NCBI GenBank assembly: GCA_028711065.1
Contig: JAQTSY010000001.1
Location: 22,610-86,609, forward strand
DNA length: 64,000 nt
Reading direction: 5' to 3'
From: Minisyncoccota bacterium
GTDB taxonomy: Bacteria; Patescibacteriota; Minisyncoccia; Phycocordibacterales; JAQTLZ01
Position 1 is the first letter of the stretch; each line of letters begins with the position of its first letter. Of this stretch, positions 29,295 to 56,232 are shown in pieces. Position numbers and translations under genes: made by a program. The notes under the pieces were generated by a model. That model saw only the letters and a program-made list of their open reading frames with translations. It was not told where the DNA came from and made no database searches.

Positions 29295-30509
29295 ATGTCA
29301 ATAAGTCAAGAATCACTGAAAAATCTGCCCGACTCGCCCGGAGTCTACTTTTTTCGATACGGAAAAGAGATTCTTTACATCGGCAAAGCCACATCTCTTC
29401 ACGACCGAGTGAAAAGCTATTTTTCAGCTCGTCTTGGAGAGGCTCGTAGCCCGCTTATCACCAGAATGGTTGAAAAAGCGGATTCTCTTGATTTTCAGAT
29501 TACTGATTCAGTGCTCGAAGCTCTGATTCTTGAAGCCGCACTTATAAAGAAATACCAGCCAAAATACAATACGGATGAAAAAGACGATAAAAGCTACAAC
29601 TATGTCGTTTTCACAAAAGAAGATTTCCCACGAATTCTTTTGGTTCGTGGCAAAAACCTAGATTCTCTGGATTATAAAGTGAAAGATATTTTCGGTCCAT
29701 TTCCGAATGGTGGGCAGTTAAAAATTGCACTTAAAATTATTCGTAAAATTTTCCCTTATAGAGATAACTGTACTCCGCTTCAGGGAAAATTGTGTTTCAA
29801 CGCCCAAATTGGCCTTTGCCCGGGCGTATGCGATGGACAAATGGGAAAAATTGAATACGTTCGTCAAATCAGACACCTCAAACTCTTTTTTGAAGGTAAA
29901 AAGTCTGCTCTAGTGAGATCTCTTGAAAAAGAGATGAAAACCCTCGCCAAAAATCGAGAGTTTGAAAAAGCGGAAATTATTAAAAGACAGATTTTTGCCC
30001 TTGGGCACATTCAAGACGTGGCGCTTTTGCGCCCTGAAAGAGACGGAACCATTCGCGCGAATGGTTCCGTCTGGAGAATTGAGGCTTATGACGTTGCGCA
30101 TATAAGCGGAACTTCAACCGTGGGAGTCATGACTGTTGTTGAAGATGGGGAAGTGAAAAAGGCCGATTACCGAATGTTTAAAATTCGCACTGCCAAGGCA
30201 GGAAGCGATACAGGGGCACTTCAGGAAGTCCTTGAACGCAGACTGAAACACTCCGAATGGCCCACCGCAAATTTAATTGTGATTGATGGTGGAATTGCGC
30301 AAAGAAATTTGGCAGAAAAAGTATTAGAAAAGAGCGGGCTGAAAATTCCAATCATAAACGTAGTGAAAGACGATCGACACAAACCCGACCATTTTCTAGG
30401 GAGTGAATCGCTTGCTCAAAAATATAAAAAAGAAATTCTCTTAGCGAACAGCGAAGCGCACCGATTCGCAATTTCGTATCATAAAAAACTGCGAGGAATA
30501 ATCGGCTAG
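29295..30509 (+). CDS. uvrC: excinuclease ABC subunit C, short form (GIY-YIG + UVR + RNase H-like endonuclease domain; no C-terminal HhH)
   Basis: 'GVYFFRYGKEILYIGKATSLHDRVKSYF' GIY-YIG, a UVR motif 'VRSLEKEMKTLAKNREFEKAEIIKRQIFAL' and 'AYDVAHISG' are present. The protein ends at ~404 aa, before any HhH domain. Confidence 0.85.
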   Translation: MSISQESLKNLPDSPGVYFFRYGKEILYIGKATSLHDRVKSYFSARLGEARSPLITRMVEKADSLDFQITDSVLEALILEAALIKKYQPKYNTDEKDDKSYNYVVFTKEDFPRILLVRGKNLDSLDYKVKDIFGPFPNGGQLKIALKIIRKIFPYRDNCTPLQGKLCFNAQIGLCPGVCDGQMGKIEYVRQIRHLKLFFEGKKSALVRSLEKEMKTLAKNREFEKAEIIKRQIFALGHIQDVALLRPERDGTIRANGSVWRIEAYDVAHISGTSTVGVMTVVEDGEVKKADYRMFKIRTAKAGSDTGALQEVLERRLKHSEWPTANLIVIDGGIAQRNLAEKVLEKSGLKIPIINVVKDDRHKPDHFLGSESLAQKYKKEILLANSEAHRFAISYHKKLRGIIG

Positions 30510-30919
30510 CAATCCTTGCTTTTGCTGTCATATTTTTTTAGTCAACAGATTTAGAAATTCAATCGCGAAAGAGGCCTTGTTGACAGCATGGTGCCGTCAG
30601 CAATAGACCATATTGGTGCATTTTGCGGTTGATAGCTGGGAATGGGGTGTGCAGACATGCCCCAGAGCACAGTTGCGCCACCTAGTCTCATAGAGTGGGG
30701 GAGAATAACCGGGACCTTCTTCCCCGTGCGTCCTTTGAGGAACAGGCAACTCGGCAGGTCCGAGTCATTCGGATCAAACCTCCGGAGGAGGAGAAAGTAG
30801 CGCGCTTTCTTTACTCCTCCGGAGGGCCGTCCATTTAAGAATCCCTATCCAATAGGAATGATTTGTGAACTCGATTTTCAACAAGTACTGAAATTCGAGT
30901 TTTTTGTTATACTATTTGC

Positions 30920-31894
30920 ATGTCAAAAATCCGTGTCGGAGTTTTGCGGGGAGGAACCTCCCGCGAATACGAAAAATCTCTCAAAAGCGGAGCGAGTGTT
31001 CTCCAAAATCTTCCGGAAAAATATATCGGATGCGATATTCTCATTACAAAAGAGGGCACGTGGCATCTCGGAGGCATTCCCATCACTCCTGAAAAACTTT
31101 TCAAAAAAGTGGATGTTATTTTTAACGCCCTTCAGGGAGACTTTCTAGAAAATCGCCACATCCAACATATATTTGAATCTCATAATATTCCTTATACTGG
31201 GGCCGATTCTCTTTCTTCTATCGTCACAACAAATAAGGCCCTAGTGAAGAAAGTATTATCTCTGCACGGTATTAAAGTCCCTTATTCAATTCAAGTAAAA
31301 AAAATAGATCACACGAAAGAAAAAATAAGAGAAATTTTCAGAACATTCCCAATGCCTGCCATAGTGAAGCCCCTTTCTTCGACTTATTCCCTTGGTGTTT
31401 CTCTTGCCAAAACTCTAAAAGAACTTGAGGAAGGAATGGAAAGAGCTTTTGCTTACTCATCTACAGTAATTATCGAAGAATATATTAAAGGGAAAGACGC
31501 CAAGTGTCTTGTGGTGGAAAAATTTCGGAAAAAAAAATATTACGCATTCCTGCCGATTGAACTCAAAAGACCAAAGGGCGCAGAATTTCTTGATAACACA
31601 ATTCGTATTTCAGGTGTTGCAGAAAAAATAAGTCCGGGAAATTTTACTCAGAAAGAAAAGGAGGGAATGGAACATGCCGCAATCAGTGCCCATCGAATCG
31701 TTGGTTTACGCCACTCATCAAAAACTGATTTTGTGGTGAATCCAAGGCGAGGAGTGTATTTACTCGAAATAGATCCTTTACAGGGATTTGATGAAGACTC
31801 ATCAACATCTAAATCGCTCTCTGCTGTGGGAGCAAAGATGTCCCATTTTGTTGACCATATGATTGGGCTGGCTTTGGCAGATAAGAAAAGGTAA
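30920..31894 (+). CDS. ddl: D-alanine--D-alanine ligase
   Basis: Ddl N-terminus 'IRVGVLRGGTSREYEKSLKSG' and ATP-grasp motifs. 'GSGKST'-type motifs are absent, as expected. Confidence 0.85.
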   Translation: MSKIRVGVLRGGTSREYEKSLKSGASVLQNLPEKYIGCDILITKEGTWHLGGIPITPEKLFKKVDVIFNALQGDFLENRHIQHIFESHNIPYTGADSLSSIVTTNKALVKKVLSLHGIKVPYSIQVKKIDHTKEKIREIFRTFPMPAIVKPLSSTYSLGVSLAKTLKELEEGMERAFAYSSTVIIEEYIKGKDAKCLVVEKFRKKKYYAFLPIELKRPKGAEFLDNTIRISGVAEKISPGNFTQKEKEGMEHAAISAHRIVGLRHSSKTDFVVNPRRGVYLLEIDPLQGFDEDSSTSKSLSAVGAKMSHFVDHMIGLALADKKR

Positions 31895-31965
31895 AAAGTA
31901 TAAGAGTCGACCCTTACAGGGTCAGTACCCCGATTGGTCCGTCAGTAGACGGAGCTCAATCGGGC

Positions 31966-32063
31966 TTCGACTCTCCTGCATGAGCAATCCCCATTGCTCA
32001 TTCGGGTCCACAAATCGAAAACCGCCTTTCGGCGGTCGATTTGTGGACCCGAGGAGAGTCGAA
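31966..32063. repeat. 28-bp inverted repeat duplicating tRNA-Ala nt 50-73 plus 8 nt of trailer, with a 25-bp hairpin insertion in the left copy
   Basis: Left arm 31966-31977 + 32003-32018 ('ttcgactctcct' ... 'cgggtccacaaatcga') is the exact reverse complement of 32036-32063. The arms surround the terminator hairpin 'ccgcc-tttc-ggcgg'. The inserted 25 nt form 'gagcaat-cccc-attgctc'. Confidence 0.6.
32010..32035 (-). terminator. intrinsic terminator of the tRNA-Ala transcript (also usable for ddl on the + strand)
   Basis: On the minus strand the tRNA trailer 'caaatcga' is followed by 'ccgcc-gaaa-ggcgg' and 'ttttcgatttg'. Confidence 0.6.
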
Positions 32064-32116
32064 CTCCTGACCTTTGCTTTGCAAAAGCACTGCTCTACCA
32101 GCTGAGCTACGGGCCC
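32044..32116 (-). tRNA. tRNA-Ala (anticodon UGC)
   Basis: Minus-strand sequence GGGCCCGTAGCTCAGCTGGTAGAGCAGTGCTTTTGCAAAGCAAAGGTCAGGAGTTCGACTCTCCTCGGGTCCA folds as a 73-nt cloverleaf. It has the G3:U70 Ala identity pair, anticodon loop tTTGCAa, a T-loop TTCGACT and discriminator A. CCA is not encoded. Confidence 0.85.
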
Positions 32117-32188
32117 TTTTTGATAACGCGATAGATTCTACACGAATTTTGATTCCGTGACAATTCTCTTAAATCGTTATCCATTTTC

Positions 32189-32617: not shown

Positions 32618-33571
32618 ATGAAAACAGCCTATATCAAGGCTTTTAAAGAGCTCGGGAAGGGCGATGCAGCCATTGCTGGAGGAAAAGGCGCCTCTTTGGG
32701 CGAGATGACACAAGCTAGAATACCAGTGCCGCCTGGATATGTCATCCTTTCAGCAGCTTTTGAGCATTTTCTCGAAGAGACGAATCTAAACGCGGAAATT
32801 GATACAGAACTCCATAAAGTGGATCACAAGGAAATGCACACAGTTGAGAATGCGTCCGAAACAATCCAGGCTCTTATTTTGGATGCAGATATGCCAGAGG
32901 ATATCGAAAAAGAAATTGAAACCAATTTTAAAAAGCTTGGAGCAAAATTTGTTGCTGTCCGCTCGTCAGCAACGGCCGAAGACTCTTCCGAAGCCGCCTG
33001 GGCAGGCCAGCTTGATAGCTATCTTAATACTACCGAGAAAGAACTCCTCACAAACGTAAAACGCTGTTGGGCATCACTCTTTACACCGCGAGCAATTTTC
33101 TACCGATTTGAAAAAGAACTCCACAAGCAGAAAATTTCCGTTGCAGTAGTCGTCCAGAAAATGGTTGAATCAGAAGTTTCCGGCATCGCTTTCTCCGTAC
33201 ATCCAGTTACAGAGGATTACAACCAGCTCATTATTGAGGGGGGATACGGCTTGGGTGAAGCTATCGTTTCGGGGCAGATCACGCCAGACAGCTATATCGT
33301 TGAGAAAAATCCTCGAAACATCGTGGACGTAAATATTTCTGTTCAAGAAAGAGGGCTCTTTCGTCTGCCAAAGGGTGGAAATGAATGGAGAGATGTTTCA
33401 AAAGAAGAGGGAGAGAAGCAGAAGCTATCAGGAAAACAAATCCTCGAACTTACTGAAATTATCCTTGGAATCGAGAAACACTACGGCTTCCCGTGCGATA
33501 TCGAATGGGCATTTGAAAAAGGAAAATTTTATATCGTTCAGAGCCGACCGATTACTACGCTGAAGAAATAA
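32618..33571 (+). CDS. stand-alone PEP synthase/PPDK-type N-terminal nucleotide-binding (ATP-grasp, PPDK_N) domain protein
   Basis: 'IAGGKGASLGEM' matches the PpsA/PPDK/RPH 'GGKGANLGEL' motif. The ~317-aa length matches the ATP-binding domain of rifampin phosphotransferase. Neither a His swivel nor a PEP/pyruvate TIM-barrel domain is present. Confidence 0.75.
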   Translation: MKTAYIKAFKELGKGDAAIAGGKGASLGEMTQARIPVPPGYVILSAAFEHFLEETNLNAEIDTELHKVDHKEMHTVENASETIQALILDADMPEDIEKEIETNFKKLGAKFVAVRSSATAEDSSEAAWAGQLDSYLNTTEKELLTNVKRCWASLFTPRAIFYRFEKELHKQKISVAVVVQKMVESEVSGIAFSVHPVTEDYNQLIIEGGYGLGEAIVSGQITPDSYIVEKNPRNIVDVNISVQERGLFRLPKGGNEWRDVSKEEGEKQKLSGKQILELTEIILGIEKHYGFPCDIEWAFEKGKFYIVQSRPITTLKK

Positions 33572-33573
33572 CT

Positions 33574-34971
33574 ATGAATCCCGCGCCGGAAACAAAGTGG
33601 GTAAAACTTGGAGATAGAGCCTACCTTCCTTTTTCGTTTTCATTAAATGGAAGTCAAAACTCTGCAAAGTACTTAAAAAAGTACGGAAATTTTGAGAATG
33701 AAGATAGGGCCATTATGTATCAGCATAGATTTTACTGGCCAGAGAACGAAATAGAAAAGATTGCAGACTATCAGATCCGAAGATACAGAACTCAAGGAGC
33801 AAAATACCTCTGGTCAATGGCGAAAAAATGTGAACAAGCCGGCGACGTGTTTCTCAAAAAGATAACTCGAATAATTGACAGAAAAACAGAAAATAAGTCT
33901 GAAGTCCAAGTCAACCTGTCCCTCATCATCGAAGAATACAGAAAATTTGTGGTCTTTATGACTATCCCGTGGGTACTCGATGATTTTTTCGGGCAAGAGC
34001 TCAACGAAATTCTAAACAAACGAAACCTTACGGAAAGAGTAGAAATAGAAAAGAAGCTCAATCAGCCACTAAGATTAAATGAGGGGGAGCTCGAGCAGAT
34101 ATCATTGCTCAAAATCGCGGCTTCGATGAAAAGTGTCGATGATTTTAATCCCGCGATTCTCAAAAAAATCGCCAAACATGTAAATGAATACGGATGGCTG
34201 CCAATTAGATGGTTTGTAGGAAATCCTCTGAAAGAAACAGACGTTATCGAGAGACTGAAACATGTCTTTTCGGACAATCCCCAAGAAAGATCAAAAAGTC
34301 TAAAAGATCAAGCGAAGAAAGTAAAAAAGGAAGCGGAACAAATAATTAGAGAACTCGGATTCAATGAGGAAGAATGCCAATTCGCGTATCTTCTCAAAGA
34401 ATATACGTTTATACGGACATATAGATCGGATCTTATAAACAAAGTAAATTTTATTGTCATACCCATCCTGAAAAAAGCGAGTGCTGAACTTGGAATTCCG
34501 TATAGCGACATCCTCTATTTATCATATGGAGAAATTCTTGAATGTCTTCGAGATGAAAAGAAATTAGCGCACATTACTGTTTTAAGCGGAAAAGAAGCAG
34601 AAGCATTTGCGACAAAAGAAGGAATCCTCGAGCAAAAATCTCTCAACATAAACGAGATAAAAGGGGTTACCGCATATAAGGGGAAGACTTCGGGCAAAGT
34701 TAAAATTGTCCATAACCCTAATGACATTTCCAAAGTAGAAAAAGGGGATATTTTAGTTACTACAATGACTTTTCCTTCCTATATTGCCGCGATGGAGAGG
34801 GCAGCTGCTTTTGTTACCGACGAAGGAGGCGTACTCTGTCATGCAGCCATTGTTGCTCGAGAAATGAAGAAACCGTGTGTCATTGCCACAAAGATCGCAA
34901 CAAAAGCTTTTAAAGACGGTGACATGGTAGAGGTGGATGCAGACACTGGCATCGTCAAAATAATTAAATAA
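33574..34971 (+). CDS. PEP-utilising-enzyme mobile (phosphohistidine swivel) domain protein, paralog 1, with unique ~350-aa N-terminal domain
   Basis: C-terminal 'GVTAYKGKTSGKVKIV...GDILVTTMTFPSY...DEGGVLCHAAIVAREMKKPCVIATK' matches PF00391 with its catalytic His. The N-terminal region is uncharacterised. Confidence 0.75.
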   Translation: MNPAPETKWVKLGDRAYLPFSFSLNGSQNSAKYLKKYGNFENEDRAIMYQHRFYWPENEIEKIADYQIRRYRTQGAKYLWSMAKKCEQAGDVFLKKITRIIDRKTENKSEVQVNLSLIIEEYRKFVVFMTIPWVLDDFFGQELNEILNKRNLTERVEIEKKLNQPLRLNEGELEQISLLKIAASMKSVDDFNPAILKKIAKHVNEYGWLPIRWFVGNPLKETDVIERLKHVFSDNPQERSKSLKDQAKKVKKEAEQIIRELGFNEEECQFAYLLKEYTFIRTYRSDLINKVNFIVIPILKKASAELGIPYSDILYLSYGEILECLRDEKKLAHITVLSGKEAEAFATKEGILEQKSLNINEIKGVTAYKGKTSGKVKIVHNPNDISKVEKGDILVTTMTFPSYIAAMERAAAFVTDEGGVLCHAAIVAREMKKPCVIATKIATKAFKDGDMVEVDADTGIVKIIK

Positions 34972-34972
34972 G

Positions 34973-36421
34973 ATGGAAGAAATTGACGTAACAAAAAAAT
35001 GGGAAAAAATGAGCACGCGGAAGACCCCGATTCACCGCTATTTTGATTTTGCCGAATCCGCAGCGACTGGCTTAAAGAAACTTATGGATGCCGATATTCC
35101 CCAGTCTGTTCTTATATCAAAAGGTGGAGAAGTAACCATGTATACCACAAAGGAGCGGCAGGAGAGCCTCTTTCAGATGATGGCTAAAAGGTTTAAAGAT
35201 AATGCTTTTATAGAATCGGTATTGCCAAAACTGCCCAAAGAACAGGAACTCTTAGTCGAATGGATTAAGACCAGTTGTTCTCTGAAAAAAATTGAAAATT
35301 TATCCAACACCCAATTATCCGATCTTGTTTTAAAACGGCACGAGAAACATATTGAAATTTGCGCGTGGCAGTGGCTAGGGTTTGCTGGAAAACTCTGTAT
35401 TGATGGCGTTGTTGCTGAAAAACTCAAAATATACGACTTGCCGATCGAGAAAAATTTGCAGACTATCTATGCTCATGATTATCCGGCATATGTTGTCTTG
35501 GCGGAGATGGATTTGAAACAAATTGCTCTCAAGGCGCAGAAAGGAGGAGTTGAAGAAAAAATTGACTCTCTTGTCGAGAGATATTTGAAAAAATACAACT
35601 TCATCAATATGTACGATGAGTTATATTCTCCTTCCACAAAAGAAGAAATTACTAAGCGATTGAAGGTTTACAGCAAGGACAAAAAGTTGGAGGAGGAAAT
35701 AGAGTCTTCGCTCAATACATTCAAACAAAATGCAAATTCATTCAAAGAATTTATTTTAAATACCCGCTTTTCCAAAGAAGATAGGACATTCTTTGAATTC
35801 GCACATCAGTTCGCATTATTTCATGAAACACGAAATTTCTCCAAAGGTGCGTCAGCTTTTTATTCGAAACCTTTTTTTAACGAAATTGCCAAGCGGCTGA
35901 AGTTGGATTTACAAGACCTTCTTGCTTTTAATGACTACGAAATCGCAGATGCTCTTAGCGGAATAAAAGAACTAACAATGGCAGAGGGTAAAAATCGACG
36001 CGAGTTTTGTCTGGGATTTTATTCGCAAGAAAAGTGGTTTTTTGACAGTGGAAAGCGTGCCCACGAAATCGCGGAGATAATAACAAAAATAGAGAAGGTA
36101 TCAGAACTGAAGGGGGTCGTCGCTTACAAAGGCGGAATAGTAAAGGGAAAAGTTAAACTGATAAATAGCGTGACTCAAATGGGAAAGCTTGAAAGAGGAG
36201 ATATTCTTGTTTCCTCAATGACCCGTCCGGAATTTATAACAAGTATGGAAAAGGCAGGAGCTATTATCACCGATGAGGGTGGGACTCTCTGTCACGCTGC
36301 AATCGTCGCTCGAGAGCTCAAAAAACCCTCCATTATTGGCACCAAAATTGCTACACAAATTCTTAAAGATGGGGATTTGGTAGAAGTAGATACAGACAGA
36401 GGTATAATAAGAAAATTATGA
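34973..36421 (+). CDS. PEP-utilising-enzyme mobile domain protein, paralog 2
   Basis: C-terminal 'GVVAYKGGIVKGKVKLI...GDILVSSMTRPEF...DEGGTLCHAAIVARELKKPSIIGTK'. The N-terminal domain is divergent. The start lies 2 nt after the previous stop. Confidence 0.75.
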   Translation: MEEIDVTKKWEKMSTRKTPIHRYFDFAESAATGLKKLMDADIPQSVLISKGGEVTMYTTKERQESLFQMMAKRFKDNAFIESVLPKLPKEQELLVEWIKTSCSLKKIENLSNTQLSDLVLKRHEKHIEICAWQWLGFAGKLCIDGVVAEKLKIYDLPIEKNLQTIYAHDYPAYVVLAEMDLKQIALKAQKGGVEEKIDSLVERYLKKYNFINMYDELYSPSTKEEITKRLKVYSKDKKLEEEIESSLNTFKQNANSFKEFILNTRFSKEDRTFFEFAHQFALFHETRNFSKGASAFYSKPFFNEIAKRLKLDLQDLLAFNDYEIADALSGIKELTMAEGKNRREFCLGFYSQEKWFFDSGKRAHEIAEIITKIEKVSELKGVVAYKGGIVKGKVKLINSVTQMGKLERGDILVSSMTRPEFITSMEKAGAIITDEGGTLCHAAIVARELKKPSIIGTKIATQILKDGDLVEVDTDRGIIRKL

Positions 36422-37890
36422 CCAAAGAAGAAATCATTCACGAGATAAATACTAAGAAGGACTGGTATCCAAAAAGTTATGCGGGATTTTTGTTTGGTAT
36501 TTATATGCAGGGTGAGGGACTCTCCAGGGGCTCTAAAGAAATTCCTTTGGCAATATCTTATGGCATGGTATATCAAAACCATAACCGGCAAGACCATTGG
36601 GACTGGTTTTGGAATATTGGGAAAATGATTCAGAAAAGGAATGAAATTCTTGAAAAAGCTGTTTCCGAAAAAGCCTTTGCAGATACTTATTTTAAAGCTT
36701 GGGAGAAAACCTATGAAAATTATCTCGCCGCTTTTGAAGAAGCAAAAGAACTAGACTTGAATTCCTTGTACGAAATTCTCTCTCTGAAATTTAGGAAATT
36801 ATACGAAACACTCATCGCGCAGGCGGCATACGGATATGTCGTTGATACCTTTCTCACCGCCGAAGACAGCGATTGGCTCGTAGAAGAAATAAAAAATGAA
36901 CTTCGAGAGAAAGCGACACCGGAAGTGATAGCTACCCTTACTGCTCCAGTTTTTCATTCGTTTATCGGAGAATTCAATGAGCGGATCCGAAAACTTGCTC
37001 TCTCTATCCGAGACAAGCGGGATAGCGAAAACATACAGAAAGAAGCTTTAAAGATCACGAAAGAATTTTTTTGGATAAAAACAAATTACCGCGATTACGG
37101 ACGGATTACACAAGAGCAAGTTTTGCATGAGGCCAGCCAGCTCCTCGATAAATCCTCATCTCTTTCTGAAAGCGCGGACCATTCTGAAAAAAACAGGACG
37201 GAAAAAGATCGAATACTAGAGTCATTTAACGCTTCCGCGCGCCTTCGCCGCATACTTCATATTTCCGAACTTTTCACCCATATTCAGGATAAGCGCAAAG
37301 AATGTGTGCTTCGCAATAACAGCCTTTTTTTCGAATTTCTCGAAACAATAGCGAAACGAGAATCGGTAGATAAGAAACTTTTTTTCTATTCAACTTCCCA
37401 GGAATTTTTCTCGTTTTTGAAAGGAATACCTCTTCCAACACACCTTATTGAAAAACGTATACATGAGGGAGTGATGGTTCTTTTTTCTAATGACACCTCT
37501 TATCTCATGTATAAAGAAGAGATCGACAGTTCTCTTAAAAGCGAGCATCTCTTTCCTAATCTTCAGAATGTGACAGAACTCCGCGGCTCAATTGCCTTTA
37601 AAGGAAAAGTGAAGGGAACTGTTCGCGTGCTCCGCAATACTACCGAGATCAATACTTTCGGAGAAGGGCAGATTCTCGTTGCCAACCAAACCACGCCAGA
37701 ATTTGTCCCTGCTATGAAAAAAGCTGCGGCCATTGTTACCGACCAGGGAGGAATTACCTGCCATGCTGCTATCGTTGCCCGTGAGCTTAAAAAGCCCTGT
37801 ATCATTGGTACAAAAAATGCGACCCAAGTTTTGAAAGATGGTGATGTTGTAGAAGTGGATGCGGAGAAGGGAATTGTAAGAATTTTATAA
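36418..37890 (+). CDS. PEP-utilising-enzyme mobile domain protein, paralog 3
   Basis: C-terminal 'GSIAFKGKVKGTVRVL...GQILVANQTTPEF...DQGGITCHAAIVARELKKPCIIGTK'. It overlaps the previous gene by 4 nt (ATGA). Confidence 0.75.
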   Translation: MTKEEIIHEINTKKDWYPKSYAGFLFGIYMQGEGLSRGSKEIPLAISYGMVYQNHNRQDHWDWFWNIGKMIQKRNEILEKAVSEKAFADTYFKAWEKTYENYLAAFEEAKELDLNSLYEILSLKFRKLYETLIAQAAYGYVVDTFLTAEDSDWLVEEIKNELREKATPEVIATLTAPVFHSFIGEFNERIRKLALSIRDKRDSENIQKEALKITKEFFWIKTNYRDYGRITQEQVLHEASQLLDKSSSLSESADHSEKNRTEKDRILESFNASARLRRILHISELFTHIQDKRKECVLRNNSLFFEFLETIAKRESVDKKLFFYSTSQEFFSFLKGIPLPTHLIEKRIHEGVMVLFSNDTSYLMYKEEIDSSLKSEHLFPNLQNVTELRGSIAFKGKVKGTVRVLRNTTEINTFGEGQILVANQTTPEFVPAMKKAAAIVTDQGGITCHAAIVARELKKPCIIGTKNATQVLKDGDVVEVDAEKGIVRIL

Positions 37891-37893
37891 AGC

Positions 37894-39318
37894 ATGGAAA
37901 AAGAGTTACTGCTTAATCCAAATACTGAACTTTTTCGATGGGGACCGACACCGGGCCGAAATTTTCTAATCGGGGATATTTTAGACATCATTGTCACTCG
38001 ATACGTAGATTTATACCCTGGATATGGATGGCCTGATTTTATGTTTCTCTATAAAGAAGGAAGATTTATCTATGTCTGCAGTTTTCCAGAGATTCGGGAA
38101 GCTGGAAAGAAGACATTCTTGAAATTCATAATACCCGAAAATACACGAGAGCATGAAATTGCTTTATGGGAAAAGAAAATACAAGAAGTTCTCCGCTGGG
38201 AAGAAAAAATTACTCACCCTGACCTAAAAAAACTTTCGGAGAAGGATTTTCTAACACTTTGGAAAGATTTCCACCATGCAATCGGCGATTTTTGGATACA
38301 TTCACAAATACCCGAGATTGCGAATTATGGTTCATCAGTCCTTTTAGAAGAAAAACTCCGAGAATTTATCAAAAAGAAAGATGAACTTGCTCATGCAATG
38401 GAGATACTTACCGCACCTGAAGAATATTCTTTCTATCAGGAGGAAGAACTGGAGCTTGCGGAAACGTCCGATCTGAAAGCTCATGCCGATAAATACTTCT
38501 GGATTCAAAACAGCTATGCAAATGTCGAGACAGCAAAAGTAGCATTTTTCCAAAAGCGGAAAAAAGAGTTACAAAGCAATTTTCGAGAAGAAGCGGAAAA
38601 AAGAATACAAAAAGTTAGGAGAGAAAAAATTGAACTTCAAGAGAAGTATGGCTTGCCAAAAGAAATTATGGATGTAGCAGAAGCCCTTGTCGCAAGCATT
38701 GTGTGGCAAGACAGGAGAAAACGCTATATTTGGGAACAACTCCACTACAAACAAATCCTGATCGAAGAGATGTCTCGAAGATTCAATATTCTTGTTTCAG
38801 ATCTTTATAATTTTACTGCGGGGGAAATCCTGGATCTTTTGTATAGAAAATCCCGCGAAAAAGATATCGAGCAAAGAAGAAAGACGTTTGCTTTTATTTC
38901 CGCCAAAAAAGACAAATATATCTATGGAATTGAGGCAGAAAAAGCTTGGGATACCTATGTACAGGACAAGGCTCCCGAGAATACGAAAGAATTCGGCGGT
39001 ATTATCGCGAGCAAAGGAAAAATATTAAAAATAGAGGGAAGAGCGCGCATAGTGCTTGATCCAAAAAACGCTCACGATTTTGAAAAAGGTGAAATATTAG
39101 TCGCTCCGATGACGAGCCCAGATTTTGTGTTCCTCATGAAAGAGGCGGGAGCTATCGTCACTGACAACGGAGGATTAACCTCGCATGCGGCAATTACCTC
39201 GCGGGAACTCCATAAAACATGTATCGTTGGGACAAGAATTGCTACAAAAGTGTTAAAAGACGGAGATATGATTGAGGTGGATGCTAATAGTGGTACTATT
39301 AGAATATTAAATAACTAA
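37894..39318 (+). CDS. PEP-utilising-enzyme mobile domain protein, paralog 4
   Basis: C-terminal 'GGIIASKGKILKIEGRARIV...GEILVAPMTSPDF...DNGGLTSHAAITSRELHKTCIVGTR'. The N-terminal domains of paralogs 2-4 share an 'FFWI.(T/N)NY' motif. Confidence 0.75.
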   Translation: MEKELLLNPNTELFRWGPTPGRNFLIGDILDIIVTRYVDLYPGYGWPDFMFLYKEGRFIYVCSFPEIREAGKKTFLKFIIPENTREHEIALWEKKIQEVLRWEEKITHPDLKKLSEKDFLTLWKDFHHAIGDFWIHSQIPEIANYGSSVLLEEKLREFIKKKDELAHAMEILTAPEEYSFYQEEELELAETSDLKAHADKYFWIQNSYANVETAKVAFFQKRKKELQSNFREEAEKRIQKVRREKIELQEKYGLPKEIMDVAEALVASIVWQDRRKRYIWEQLHYKQILIEEMSRRFNILVSDLYNFTAGEILDLLYRKSREKDIEQRRKTFAFISAKKDKYIYGIEAEKAWDTYVQDKAPENTKEFGGIIASKGKILKIEGRARIVLDPKNAHDFEKGEILVAPMTSPDFVFLMKEAGAIVTDNGGLTSHAAITSRELHKTCIVGTRIATKVLKDGDMIEVDANSGTIRILNN

Positions 39319-55339: not shown

Positions 55340-55423
55340 TATAACATCTCGAGAATTCTTTGAGATGTTATATCGCCGCAACTAAAAAAAGCCGATATAT
55401 TTCAGCTTTTTTTAGTTGCGGCG
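55340..55423. repeat. two adjacent perfect palindromes (11-bp and 19-bp stems)
   Basis: 55340-55372: 'tataacatctc-gagaattcttt-gagatgttata'. 55374-55423: 'cgccgcaactaaaaaaagc-cgatatatttca-gctttttttagttgcggcg'. They lie at the left border of a GC-rich island. Confidence 0.6.
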
Positions 55424-55494
55424 ATGCGTGTCGTTGCAACCAGTCAAGTGGCTTAAGACTCCTAGAAAGAGTCGATACGAAAGGGACCAAAAGA

Positions 55495-56232
55495 ATGCCG
55501 ACCACAACGATAACCTTCACGCCCACGCCTGAACAGGCGGCGTTGATTGATGCGCTCGCAAAAGAAGCGCGGGGAGAGATTGTAGACTCCTTCGCAAAAC
55601 TAGTGCGACACGGAAAGGCCGGCCCGGCTGAAGTCGAGGCTGGAATGAGGCACTTGCGCCAATTCAGGCGGAAGCTTGATCTTTATGGACTGCTTTCGGC
55701 CGAGATGGAAGTGGTCGCGCCGTGTCTGGAAAAACTGCCTGAAAGGGAACCAAAACTGATCCCCGCGTTCGAAGAGAGCAGTCAAAACACTACGGGGGAA
55801 GTGAAGTTCAAAATGCATATCAGCAGGCGATTGCGCGAGCTGGGCTTCCAGGATCCCCGCGGACCGGCCACAGCGGAGTGTGGGGTCGATTATTTCCGGT
55901 TAGCCATGGACACAGACCTCGATCACATCTTCAGAAGTACGGAGATCGAGCCTGAGGATTTGGCGCTCACGGCGCGTCAAATCCAAGCATGGATCGGGCA
56001 GCGGCAGAGCGTCCTGGATTTCGAAGGGAACTCAAACTTCAGTTTGTTGTGGAAGACGCCGATCGGAAAACTGGCCGTCGTGGAGTTGTCGGGAACGAAG
56101 GAGGAATTCCCTCCGGCAGACCCGCTCCTGACGTTGTCCGCCGAATTGGTGGACTTTCATTCGCCGGAAATCATACCCGCGAATGACCCGAAGATGTGGT
56201 TCATCTTCAAAAAAGCGCAACCGAAGAAGTAG
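55495..56232 (+). CDS. hypothetical protein (245 aa), GC-rich
   Basis: The ATG follows the palindromes and codon usage is GC-rich. No recognisable motif. Followed by a terminator. Confidence 0.4.
   Translation: MPTTTITFTPTPEQAALIDALAKEARGEIVDSFAKLVRHGKAGPAEVEAGMRHLRQFRRKLDLYGLLSAEMEVVAPCLEKLPEREPKLIPAFEESSQNTTGEVKFKMHISRRLRELGFQDPRGPATAECGVDYFRLAMDTDLDHIFRSTEIEPEDLALTARQIQAWIGQRQSVLDFEGNSNFSLLWKTPIGKLAVVELSGTKEEFPPADPLLTLSAELVDFHSPEIIPANDPKMWFIFKKAQPKK

Follow-up and report, generated by a model that had tools for sequence, protein, structure and literature searches.

The ddl–tRNA-Ala junction

The 64-kb stretch of DNA from a Minisyncoccota bacterium analysed here (the window) contains a tRNA-Ala(UGC) gene facing ddl, the gene for D-alanine--D-alanine ligase. 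Between the two genes lies a highly structured element that copies the tRNA's 3' end in inverted orientation. The ddl gene (30920-31894, + strand), identified from the list of open reading frames (ORFs) and its Pfam domains Dala_Dala_lig_C/N, is convergent with the tRNA gene. Its stop codon is located 8 nt before the start of the element, and no ORF is listed between ddl and the tRNA.

The tRNA gene occupies 32044-32116 on the - strand. It is 73 nt long (GGGCCCG...CGGGTCCA), carries G3:U70 and does not encode CCA, its 3' end being followed by CAA instead. ARAGORN calls tRNA-Ala(tgc) at 32043-32116 (-), and Rfam RF00005 scores 65.9 bits over 32044-32116 against a threshold of 29. The tRNA call covers this segment only; the copy of the tRNA end on the + strand is not a tRNA. 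A promoter-like site, TTGTCA-17-TAGAAT (32135-32163, - strand), matches at 10 of 12 positions in the promoter scan. The promoter block, ...ttcgtgtagaat, is also present 5' of tRNA-Ala in L002 and L004, two of the loci collected for comparison.

The 8-nt trailer of the tRNA, CAAATCGA, leads into the terminator ACCGCC-GAAA-GGCGGT-TTTCGATTTG. Its hairpin (ACCGCC-TTTC-GGCGGT, 32021-32036), located by the terminator scan and by folding, forms the centre of a larger palindrome. On the - strand the scan returned GACCGCC-GAAA-GGCGGTT followed by TTCGATTTGT, a G+C-rich hairpin with a U-tract that is typical of an intrinsic terminator. The tail on the + strand, CGATTTGTGG, is a weaker tract and failed the scan. 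An earlier reading of this DNA (the original prediction) had proposed both the tRNA-Ala with its G3:U70 pair and the trailer that runs into a terminator, and ARAGORN, the Rfam score and the - strand terminator call agree with it.

The inverted tRNA end belongs to a non-coding cassette

A non-coding cassette of ~115 bp (31903-32018) opens with the inverted tRNA end. Two inverted repeats span the terminator: I1, with 17-nt arms at 32002-32018/32036-32052, and I6, with 12-nt arms at 31966-31977/32052-32063, both 100% identical. Combined, the two arm pairs give an exact 28-nt reverse complement of tRNA positions 54-73 and the 8-nt trailer, as originally predicted. The template of the copy, segment A (32036-32063, - strand), comprises the T-loop, the T-stem 3' strand, the acceptor 3' strand, the discriminator and the trailer. 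The copy, segment B, is split in two. Part 1 (32003-32018; CGGGTCCACAAATCGA on the + strand) contains the inverted acceptor 3' strand, discriminator and 8-nt trailer, while part 2 (31966-31977; TTCGACTCTCCT on the + strand) contains the inverted T-stem 3' strand and T-loop and ends at the T-loop TTCGA. The two parts are separated by a 25-nt insert hairpin, hp (31978-32002), whose 9-bp stem (31980-31988/31993-32001) is capped by the loop CCCC; it matches the self-complementary insert described previously. The hairpin sits precisely where the acceptor and T-stem parts of the inverted copy meet.

Next to the inverted copy, and overlapping part 2 of B, is module X (31903-31974), which is predicted to fold into a three-way junction. 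The two small hairpins noted upstream in the original prediction are both found, by folding and by the repeat finder: a small one at 31910-31922 and a long one at 31929-31964. They are separated by the invariant junction sequence CAGTAC (31923-31928; GTACTG on the - strand) and enclosed by the 8-bp closing stem P1 (31903-31910/31967-31974). The outer strand of this stem includes segment C (31903-31909, - strand), a short sense copy of the tRNA T-loop/T-stem with the sequence CGACTCT. C corresponds to the direct repeat D13, AGAGTCGA, found at 31903 and 32055, whose counterpart in other loci is CGAATCTCC. A lineage-specific T-loop base, the C in TTCGACT, is common to the tRNA (A), B and C.

The region folds far better than expected by chance, with z-scores of -9.0 (+ strand, 31895-32045), -12.0 (+ strand, 31895-32070) and -10.4 (- strand including the tRNA, whose folding had been proposed as a check); no shuffled sequence was as good. 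Only 0-1 of ~40 predicted stem pairs are G-U, and the window cassette therefore folds equally well on both strands. Folding energy thus shows no strand preference for this X-type cassette and is uninformative for X.

Searches with the 28-mer and the 25-mer, a check proposed in the original prediction, detected no further copy in the 64-kb window at ≤3 mismatches (0/100 shuffles matched). Neither X nor B nor hp occurs a second time in the 64 kb, and a dispersed repeat was therefore ruled out for the window. A promoter within the cassette was likewise rejected: the only candidate is a weak 9/12 site (31925-31897, - strand), which by inspection is not kept in L027 or L052.

Assembly of the region is supported in part by L001 (Logan SRR22315508), an independent short-read contig of the same organism that is equivalent to window positions 30447-31936. 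Within the cassette region it confirms 31895-31936 only, ending inside the long hairpin of module X. A drop in coverage at the hairpins and strain variation are possible causes of this end.

The plan recurs behind tRNA-Ala genes of Patescibacteria

Related loci were collected with a query comprising the tRNA-Ala body alone (GCTTTTGCAAAGCAAAGGTCAG), which is blind to the sequence 3' of the gene and returned 38 loci from Patescibacteria. A metagenome scan with the pattern "tRNA end - 20 to 50 nt - GTGGACC", together with look-ups anchored on Ddl, contributed L046/L047, L048, L049/L051, L050/L054, L052, L053 and L111. L046 and L047 contain tRNA-Ala(CGC) on ENA metagenome contigs, the former labelled human gut. 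Ddl look-ups yielded L110 and L111, with a tRNA called in both, and further ones led to loci without tRNA-Ala; an initial Ddl-based scan of genome contigs and exact look-ups with two neighbouring proteins gave no match. The analysis covers 64 kb of this genome and flanks of up to ~8-15 kb in the other loci.

The same plan is present behind tRNA-Ala in at least 8 other loci. Segment B is found behind a palindromic terminator in L014, L016, L019, L020, L027 and L036 from the set of 38, and Y modules (described below) in L009 and L031. The terminator in most of the 38 loci is a long perfect palindrome starting directly after the discriminator. In the B-carrying loci the palindrome extends into the tRNA, with more structure beyond. 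Cassettes accompany roughly 20% of tRNA-Ala loci, a rough figure since the collection scans were exact-pattern searches. L014 also contains two identical tRNA-Ala(UGC) genes face to face (L014:1639-1826), either a real convergent duplication or a fold-back artefact.

Read on the tRNA strand, the plan runs from A through the palindromic trailer/terminator to B split by hp, followed by one or more X/Y modules and C. The latter pairs with the end of B and thereby closes the module. This plan and its recurrence come directly from the tool results, as do the compensatory changes, the patchy distribution and the cassette swap described below. B is the reverse complement of positions 54-73 of the local tRNA and stops at the T-loop TTCGAA, with the same end point in 9 loci. 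It tracks the local tRNA even in L111, where a different T-arm with a CAGG/CCTG T-stem is mirrored in B. B departs from the complement of the local tRNA at the acceptor/T-stem junction in L036 and L049, with a TA step missing or replaced.

The insert hairpin is found in six lineages (window, L027, L036, L049, L052 and L111) as a stem of 8-9 bp with a loop of 3-4 nt and the flanks A...G(T/C). Counted over five lineages (L111, a later addition, agrees by visual inspection), Watson-Crick pairs make up 44 of the 45 stem pairs and G-U pairs 0, with 2-3 pair types per position. Strand identity between lineages is 0-5 of 9 positions: the structure is kept while the sequences are unrelated. In L047, L052 and L111, C reaches the discriminator and thereby repeats 14-18 nt of the tRNA 3' end in direct orientation (17 nt in L047), with its own trailer or terminator. 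L052 carries one further unit, and the L111 unit folds as one closed rod of 57 pairs.

The modules that follow B fall into three forms. Module X consists of the long hairpin, GTACTG, CTCCTGTAAGGAG and CGAATCTC, and is present in the window, L027 and L052; a further copy, in L020, is interrupted. The alignment contains the three good copies and its figures are only indicative: 92.9% of cells are paired, compared to 40-55% when the partners are slid. Three pairs are changed on both sides, including ACCCT/AGGGT versus CTCCT/AGGAG, while GTACTG and the TGTAA loop are invariant among the three. Module Y (L009, L020, L031, L036, L049, L052 and L111) comprises a GCCG..GGCGG hairpin followed by GGTCGCG..CGTGACC or TGCCCAGA..GCGGGC and, after it, GAATCT. 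It contains conserved G-U pairs (GGTCG/TGACC), because of which it folds better on the tRNA strand. That strand is the more stable in 7/7 copies, by 3-14 kcal/mol, and shuffle z-scores agree with the preference in 5/7. The third, short form, TGGACCC-N11-12-GTCCA, is found in L019, L048 and L053. A hairpin that resembles the 3' hairpin of Y lies behind tRNA-Ala(UGC) in L110 (5176-5290). It consists of GGTCAC..GTGACCACCGA, follows a strong promoter-like TTGACA-17-TATACT and sits in the 5' leader of the next gene.

Indications of turnover in the tRNA-Ala flank

The nearest relative found, L002 (GCA_028714635.1), has a Ddl that is 65% identical. It shares the order uvrA-uvrC-ddl with a convergent tRNA-Ala, the same promoter block and the small coiled-coil ORF. 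The 46 nt between its ddl and tRNA form a plain bidirectional terminator, so at this distance the cassette is no longer conserved. The junction comparison in relatives foreseen in the original prediction thus finds the inverted copy recurring elsewhere and missing from L002.

A cassette swap is seen between L020 and L027, two genomes that are nearly identical. Their tRNAs are identical and their distal flanks are 97-100% identical from TCCTGTAAGGAGCGAATCTC onward, while the terminators and modules between them are entirely different. L020 also carries a nested insertion of ~75 nt with a 10-nt direct repeat on both sides. Cassette units also occur in tandem. Decayed or truncated modules are found in L016 and L027. 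The X core is 68% identical between the window and L027, whose tRNAs are 94.5% identical, and 90% identical between L027 and L052, whose tRNAs are 84% identical. L052 and L111 have 79% identical tRNAs and 86% identical Y hairpins. Module similarity is thus incongruent with tRNA similarity.

In L010, L029 and L030, large serine recombinase genes are convergent with tRNA-Ala(UGC) and extend with their reading frames into its 3' end. The flank is therefore an integration site. The gene in L030 (1932-3479) matches Pfam Resolvase and Recombinase. Another large serine recombinase gene is present in L017, and remnants in L008, L039 and L040. All of these are in loci other than the window, and those loci lack X and Y. 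The second, far attachment (att) end of the serine-integrase elements was not found within the fetched loci and lies outside them. Together with the direct repeats of L047, L052 and L111, the integrase genes bear out the earlier view of the block as a copy of the tRNA 3' end, in a flank used for recombination.

The uvrA-uvrC-ddl-tRNA-Ala neighbourhood is widely conserved (window 30920-32116 compared to L002, L004, L020, L027, L110 and L111). The tRNA-Ala gene with its promoter points toward ddl in the window and L002 and away from ddl in L004, L020, L027, L110 and L111. As both orientations are found, the tRNA must have been inverted at least once.

Rejected candidates and other features

Several structures were considered for the cassette and discarded. 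A hidden or intron-containing tRNA on the + strand would lack the T-stem 5' strand and the acceptor 5' strand. The core motifs of a hammerhead-like three-way junction are absent on inspection. Rfam 15 scans at gathering and E-value thresholds, covering the window and 12 distinct related loci, returned tRNA only, with all other matches at E ~0.04-9 and far below the gathering scores. Literature searches aimed at this arrangement found no description of it.

A search with the 20-mer of the tRNA 3' end returned unrelated transfer-messenger RNA (tmRNA) genes only. IMG/VR tmRNA genes at L043:10040-10389, L044:521-871 and L045:3141-3491 (tag ANTYAMAA) have the exact 20-nt 3' end TTCGACTCTCCTCGGGTCCA in common with the window tRNA-Ala and are otherwise unrelated to the cassette.

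The uvrC-ddl spacer of the window (30510-30919) is a 410-nt non-coding region with 47% GC and a fold z-score of -4.5 (+ strand); the equivalent in L002 is 34 nt long. It is present in Logan L001, matches no Rfam family and resembles none of the fetched loci. The spacer could be an RNA of a type not yet identified or another insertion. A perfect 32-nt palindrome is found inside uvrC (30041-30072). A 54-nt palindrome (55372-55425; 27-nt arms, 93% complementary) overlaps the start of the listed ORF at 55360-56232.

Further along the window, at 32618-39318, four tandem paralogous ORFs of 465-490 aa lie behind the gene for a 317-aa PPDK_N (ATP-binding) protein. The Pfam match of these ORFs, to the PEP-utilizers mobile domain, is limited to the last ~70 residues of each. 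The region is an unusual split and amplified locus for a phosphoenolpyruvate (PEP)-utilising enzyme.

Origin and possible function of the cassette

The reading that we prefer, tentatively and with a little less than even confidence, is that of a family of non-coding cassettes borne by recombination and specific for the 3' flank of tRNA-Ala; the member found here also provides the ddl/tRNA terminator. The cassette would be moved or swapped through recombination at the tRNA T-loop, where tRNA-targeting elements classically cross over. Such recombination would explain the copies that start or stop at TTCGAA and the direct repeats that flank the fuller versions. B would be held identical to the local tRNA by palindrome correction, through template switching or gene conversion across the terminator. 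The cassette may be tolerated or retained here since its arms lengthen the terminator shared by ddl and tRNA-Ala. It encodes no protein, and mobility would thus need a recombinase encoded elsewhere or homologous exchange via the conserved tRNA. The recombination mechanism, the origin of B and a benefit to the host are steps that we infer.

Several observations weigh against this reading. The window has no recombinase and no full direct repeat (C is 7-8 nt long), and the missing second copy of X, B and hp in the 64 kb means that the cassette is no dispersed miniature inverted-repeat transposable element (MITE) here. Classical integration yields direct and not inverted repeats. The cassette was not found in viral contigs (IMG/VR) or phage genomes. 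The X motif gave 54 IMG/VR matches, all of them chance matches without the hairpin, and blastn against 50,697 phage genomes gave no match; viral and phage origins were rejected. B and C would form the perfect palindrome GAGATTCGAATCTC. As judged by inspection, the inner ends of X and Y lack the half-site symmetry expected of a serine-integrase attP. Mobility is suggested by sequence comparison and not by a directly observed excision or insertion event. The conserved single-stranded motifs and the compensatory changes fit a functional RNA equally well, and Y folds better on the tRNA strand in every copy.

Possible but less probable is that the cassette specifies a functional, structured RNA associated with tRNA-Ala and transcribed from the same strand, either together with the tRNA or after it. 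B would provide the 5' 'acceptor' and T-stem strands, pairing with either C or the 3' end of tRNA-Ala itself. The product would be a tRNA-like acceptor/T helix in which hp replaces the D and anticodon arms and X/Y the T-loop. RNase P and RNase Z might excise it, or in read-through transcripts it might hold the tRNA's 3' end. Stems maintained by compensatory changes argue for an RNA, and so do the invariant GTACTG junction and TGTAA loop, the conserved G-U pairs and lower folding energy of Y on the tRNA strand, and the co-variation of B with the local tRNA. The units of L047, L052 and L111 close as single rods with an acceptor-like end, and the cassette keeps a constant position and orientation relative to tRNA-Ala. 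It is however located behind a good terminator, and the promoter scan revealed no promoter of its own. The stems of hp, P1 and X are built of Watson-Crick pairs (0-1 G-U) and fold as well on one strand as on the other, which is unusual for a selected RNA. About 75% of tRNA-Ala loci and the nearest relative lack the cassette, and decayed copies and swaps occur. The mimic carries A-U at position 3:70, hence it is no AlaRS substrate, and the window copy is devoid of its own acceptor 3' strand. We consider it rather unlikely that the cassettes constitute a new class of tRNA-linked RNA in Patescibacteria, an acceptor/T-helix mimic released from tRNA-Ala read-through transcripts by RNase P/Z and exchanged as a cassette. 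Possible roles of such an RNA are those of a decoy or guide acting on the tRNA-Ala 3' end or on integrases that target it.

That the cassette is the remnant of a second tRNA-Ala, which once faced the present one across the terminator and had its body replaced by hairpins, is improbable. L014 provides a precedent with two complete tRNA-Ala genes convergent across one terminator, although these lie at a contig end where a fold-back assembly artefact is possible. Inverted T-arm-like fragments are present ~100 nt downstream in L012 and L034, and the flips of tRNA-Ala relative to ddl among lineages would also suit such a history. Segment 31895-31965, however, has no similarity to the 5' two-thirds of the tRNA. 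The T-loop base at which B ends does not differ between lineages, a constancy that random decay would not produce, and hp, X and Y are conserved families rather than decay products. Slightly less probable still is a local mutational by-product, arising independently in each lineage through template switching at the palindromic terminator, with neither function nor mobility. The long perfect palindromes directly behind the discriminator and the 100% identity of B and the trailer copy to the local sequence are what this mechanism would produce. It leaves unexplained why six lineages share an equally sized hairpin at an identical junction, and likewise the homologous X/Y modules and the constant TTCGAA end. 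Template switching as the sole explanation is thus largely refuted, while it may still maintain the identity of B and A.

The original prediction had favoured a decayed scar of an excised or inverted integrative element. Such a one-off scar, or an assembly artefact, is now very improbable. The absence of the cassette from L002 and the end of the independent Logan contig within it, at 31936, would be compatible with either. The same architecture is nevertheless present in more than 10 independent assemblies from varied projects and lineages, with compensating sequence. Other genomes share the palindrome plan with lineage-specific compensating changes, which the prediction itself had named as evidence against a scar. 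Since the architecture occurs in NCBI, ENA, JGI and Logan assemblies alike, an artefact is unlikely. The prediction's alternative, a long bidirectional terminator or processing structure, is compatible with the core palindrome; the extra modules, the swap between L020 and L027 and the absence from L002 are not explained by it.

If the preferred reading is correct, tRNA-Ala genes of Patescibacteria carry previously undescribed, very small and gene-free cassettes, built of copies of the tRNA's own block from T-loop to 3' end and of conserved hairpin modules. The tRNA-Ala 3' flank would undergo rapid turnover even in very small genomes, and the cassette could be used as a marker of strain-level variation. 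Annotators would be cautioned against taking such palindromes for assembly errors or pseudo-tRNAs. Should the modules prove to be RNAs, they would represent a new tRNA-linked RNA family in a phylum with few known non-coding RNAs.

Comparison with known systems

Genomic islands at tRNA and tmRNA genes leave a regenerated tRNA and a displaced fragment of its 3' end (PMC4383910), and the Dehalococcoides ssrA islands with the serine recombinase DsiB are a published parallel (PMC3146451). The cassettes share with such islands the site, a tRNA-Ala-type 3' end, and the copied block of ~20 nt from T-loop to discriminator. Tandem units, the displaced direct repeat in L047, L052 and L111, and integrase genes that overlap the tRNA end in sister loci are further likenesses. 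Unlike islands, the cassettes are 115-300 bp long, gene-free and composed of conserved internal hairpin modules, with an extra inverted copy of the block across the terminator. Of the features used in Islander-type detection, the displaced direct repeat is just 7-8 nt (CGACTCT) in the window, compared to 14-18 nt in the other three loci, and an integrase gene inside the element is absent from the window.

MITEs, BOX, Correia, RPE and REP/BIME are small, hairpin-rich and modular non-coding repeats. The cassettes resemble them in the variable number and order of modules, nested insertions, patchy distribution and inverted ends (B versus C). As in MITEs, terminal inverted repeats are combined with small size: B and C pair over 8 bp in the window and ~20 bp at most (L047, L111), in elements of 115-300 bp. 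In contrast to the many dispersed copies of a MITE, the cassette apparently exists as a single copy, bound to one site, the tRNA-Ala 3' flank. One copy is present in the window, the copies in other loci are found only behind tRNA-Ala, and no second one was detected in the 64 kb or in the flanks of ~50 loci. Its inverted ends copy the host tRNA and not a transposase site. The CGA(A) that flanks the module interiors might suggest a target-site duplication, but belongs to the closing stem.

With bidirectional intrinsic terminators, a style common behind most tRNA-Ala genes of these genomes, the cassette shares a palindrome between ddl and the tRNA that is perfectly Watson-Crick paired and has A and T tracts. 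It differs in that the stem runs 20 nt into an RNA gene and that conserved modules would be needless for a terminator. The permuted tmRNA RF04321 has an identical order of T-arm, acceptor 3' strand, linker hairpin and acceptor 5' strand, and gives weak matches of 19.3 bits (window, L052), far below the gathering score of 47. The upstream partner of the cassette is a complete tRNA, and the mimic has A3-U70 instead of G3:U70. A tmRNA or permuted tmRNA, for which the frame ...GTA CTG ACC CTG TAA was considered, was rejected on these grounds; ARAGORN reports none in the window or the loci, and a minority of loci is concerned.

Finally, quasipalindrome correction by template switching keeps the arms of a palindrome identical. 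The cassette arms are likewise perfect, including the lineage-specific bases of tRNA and trailer. Correction of this kind accounts for the arms, but not for the conserved hp, X and Y.

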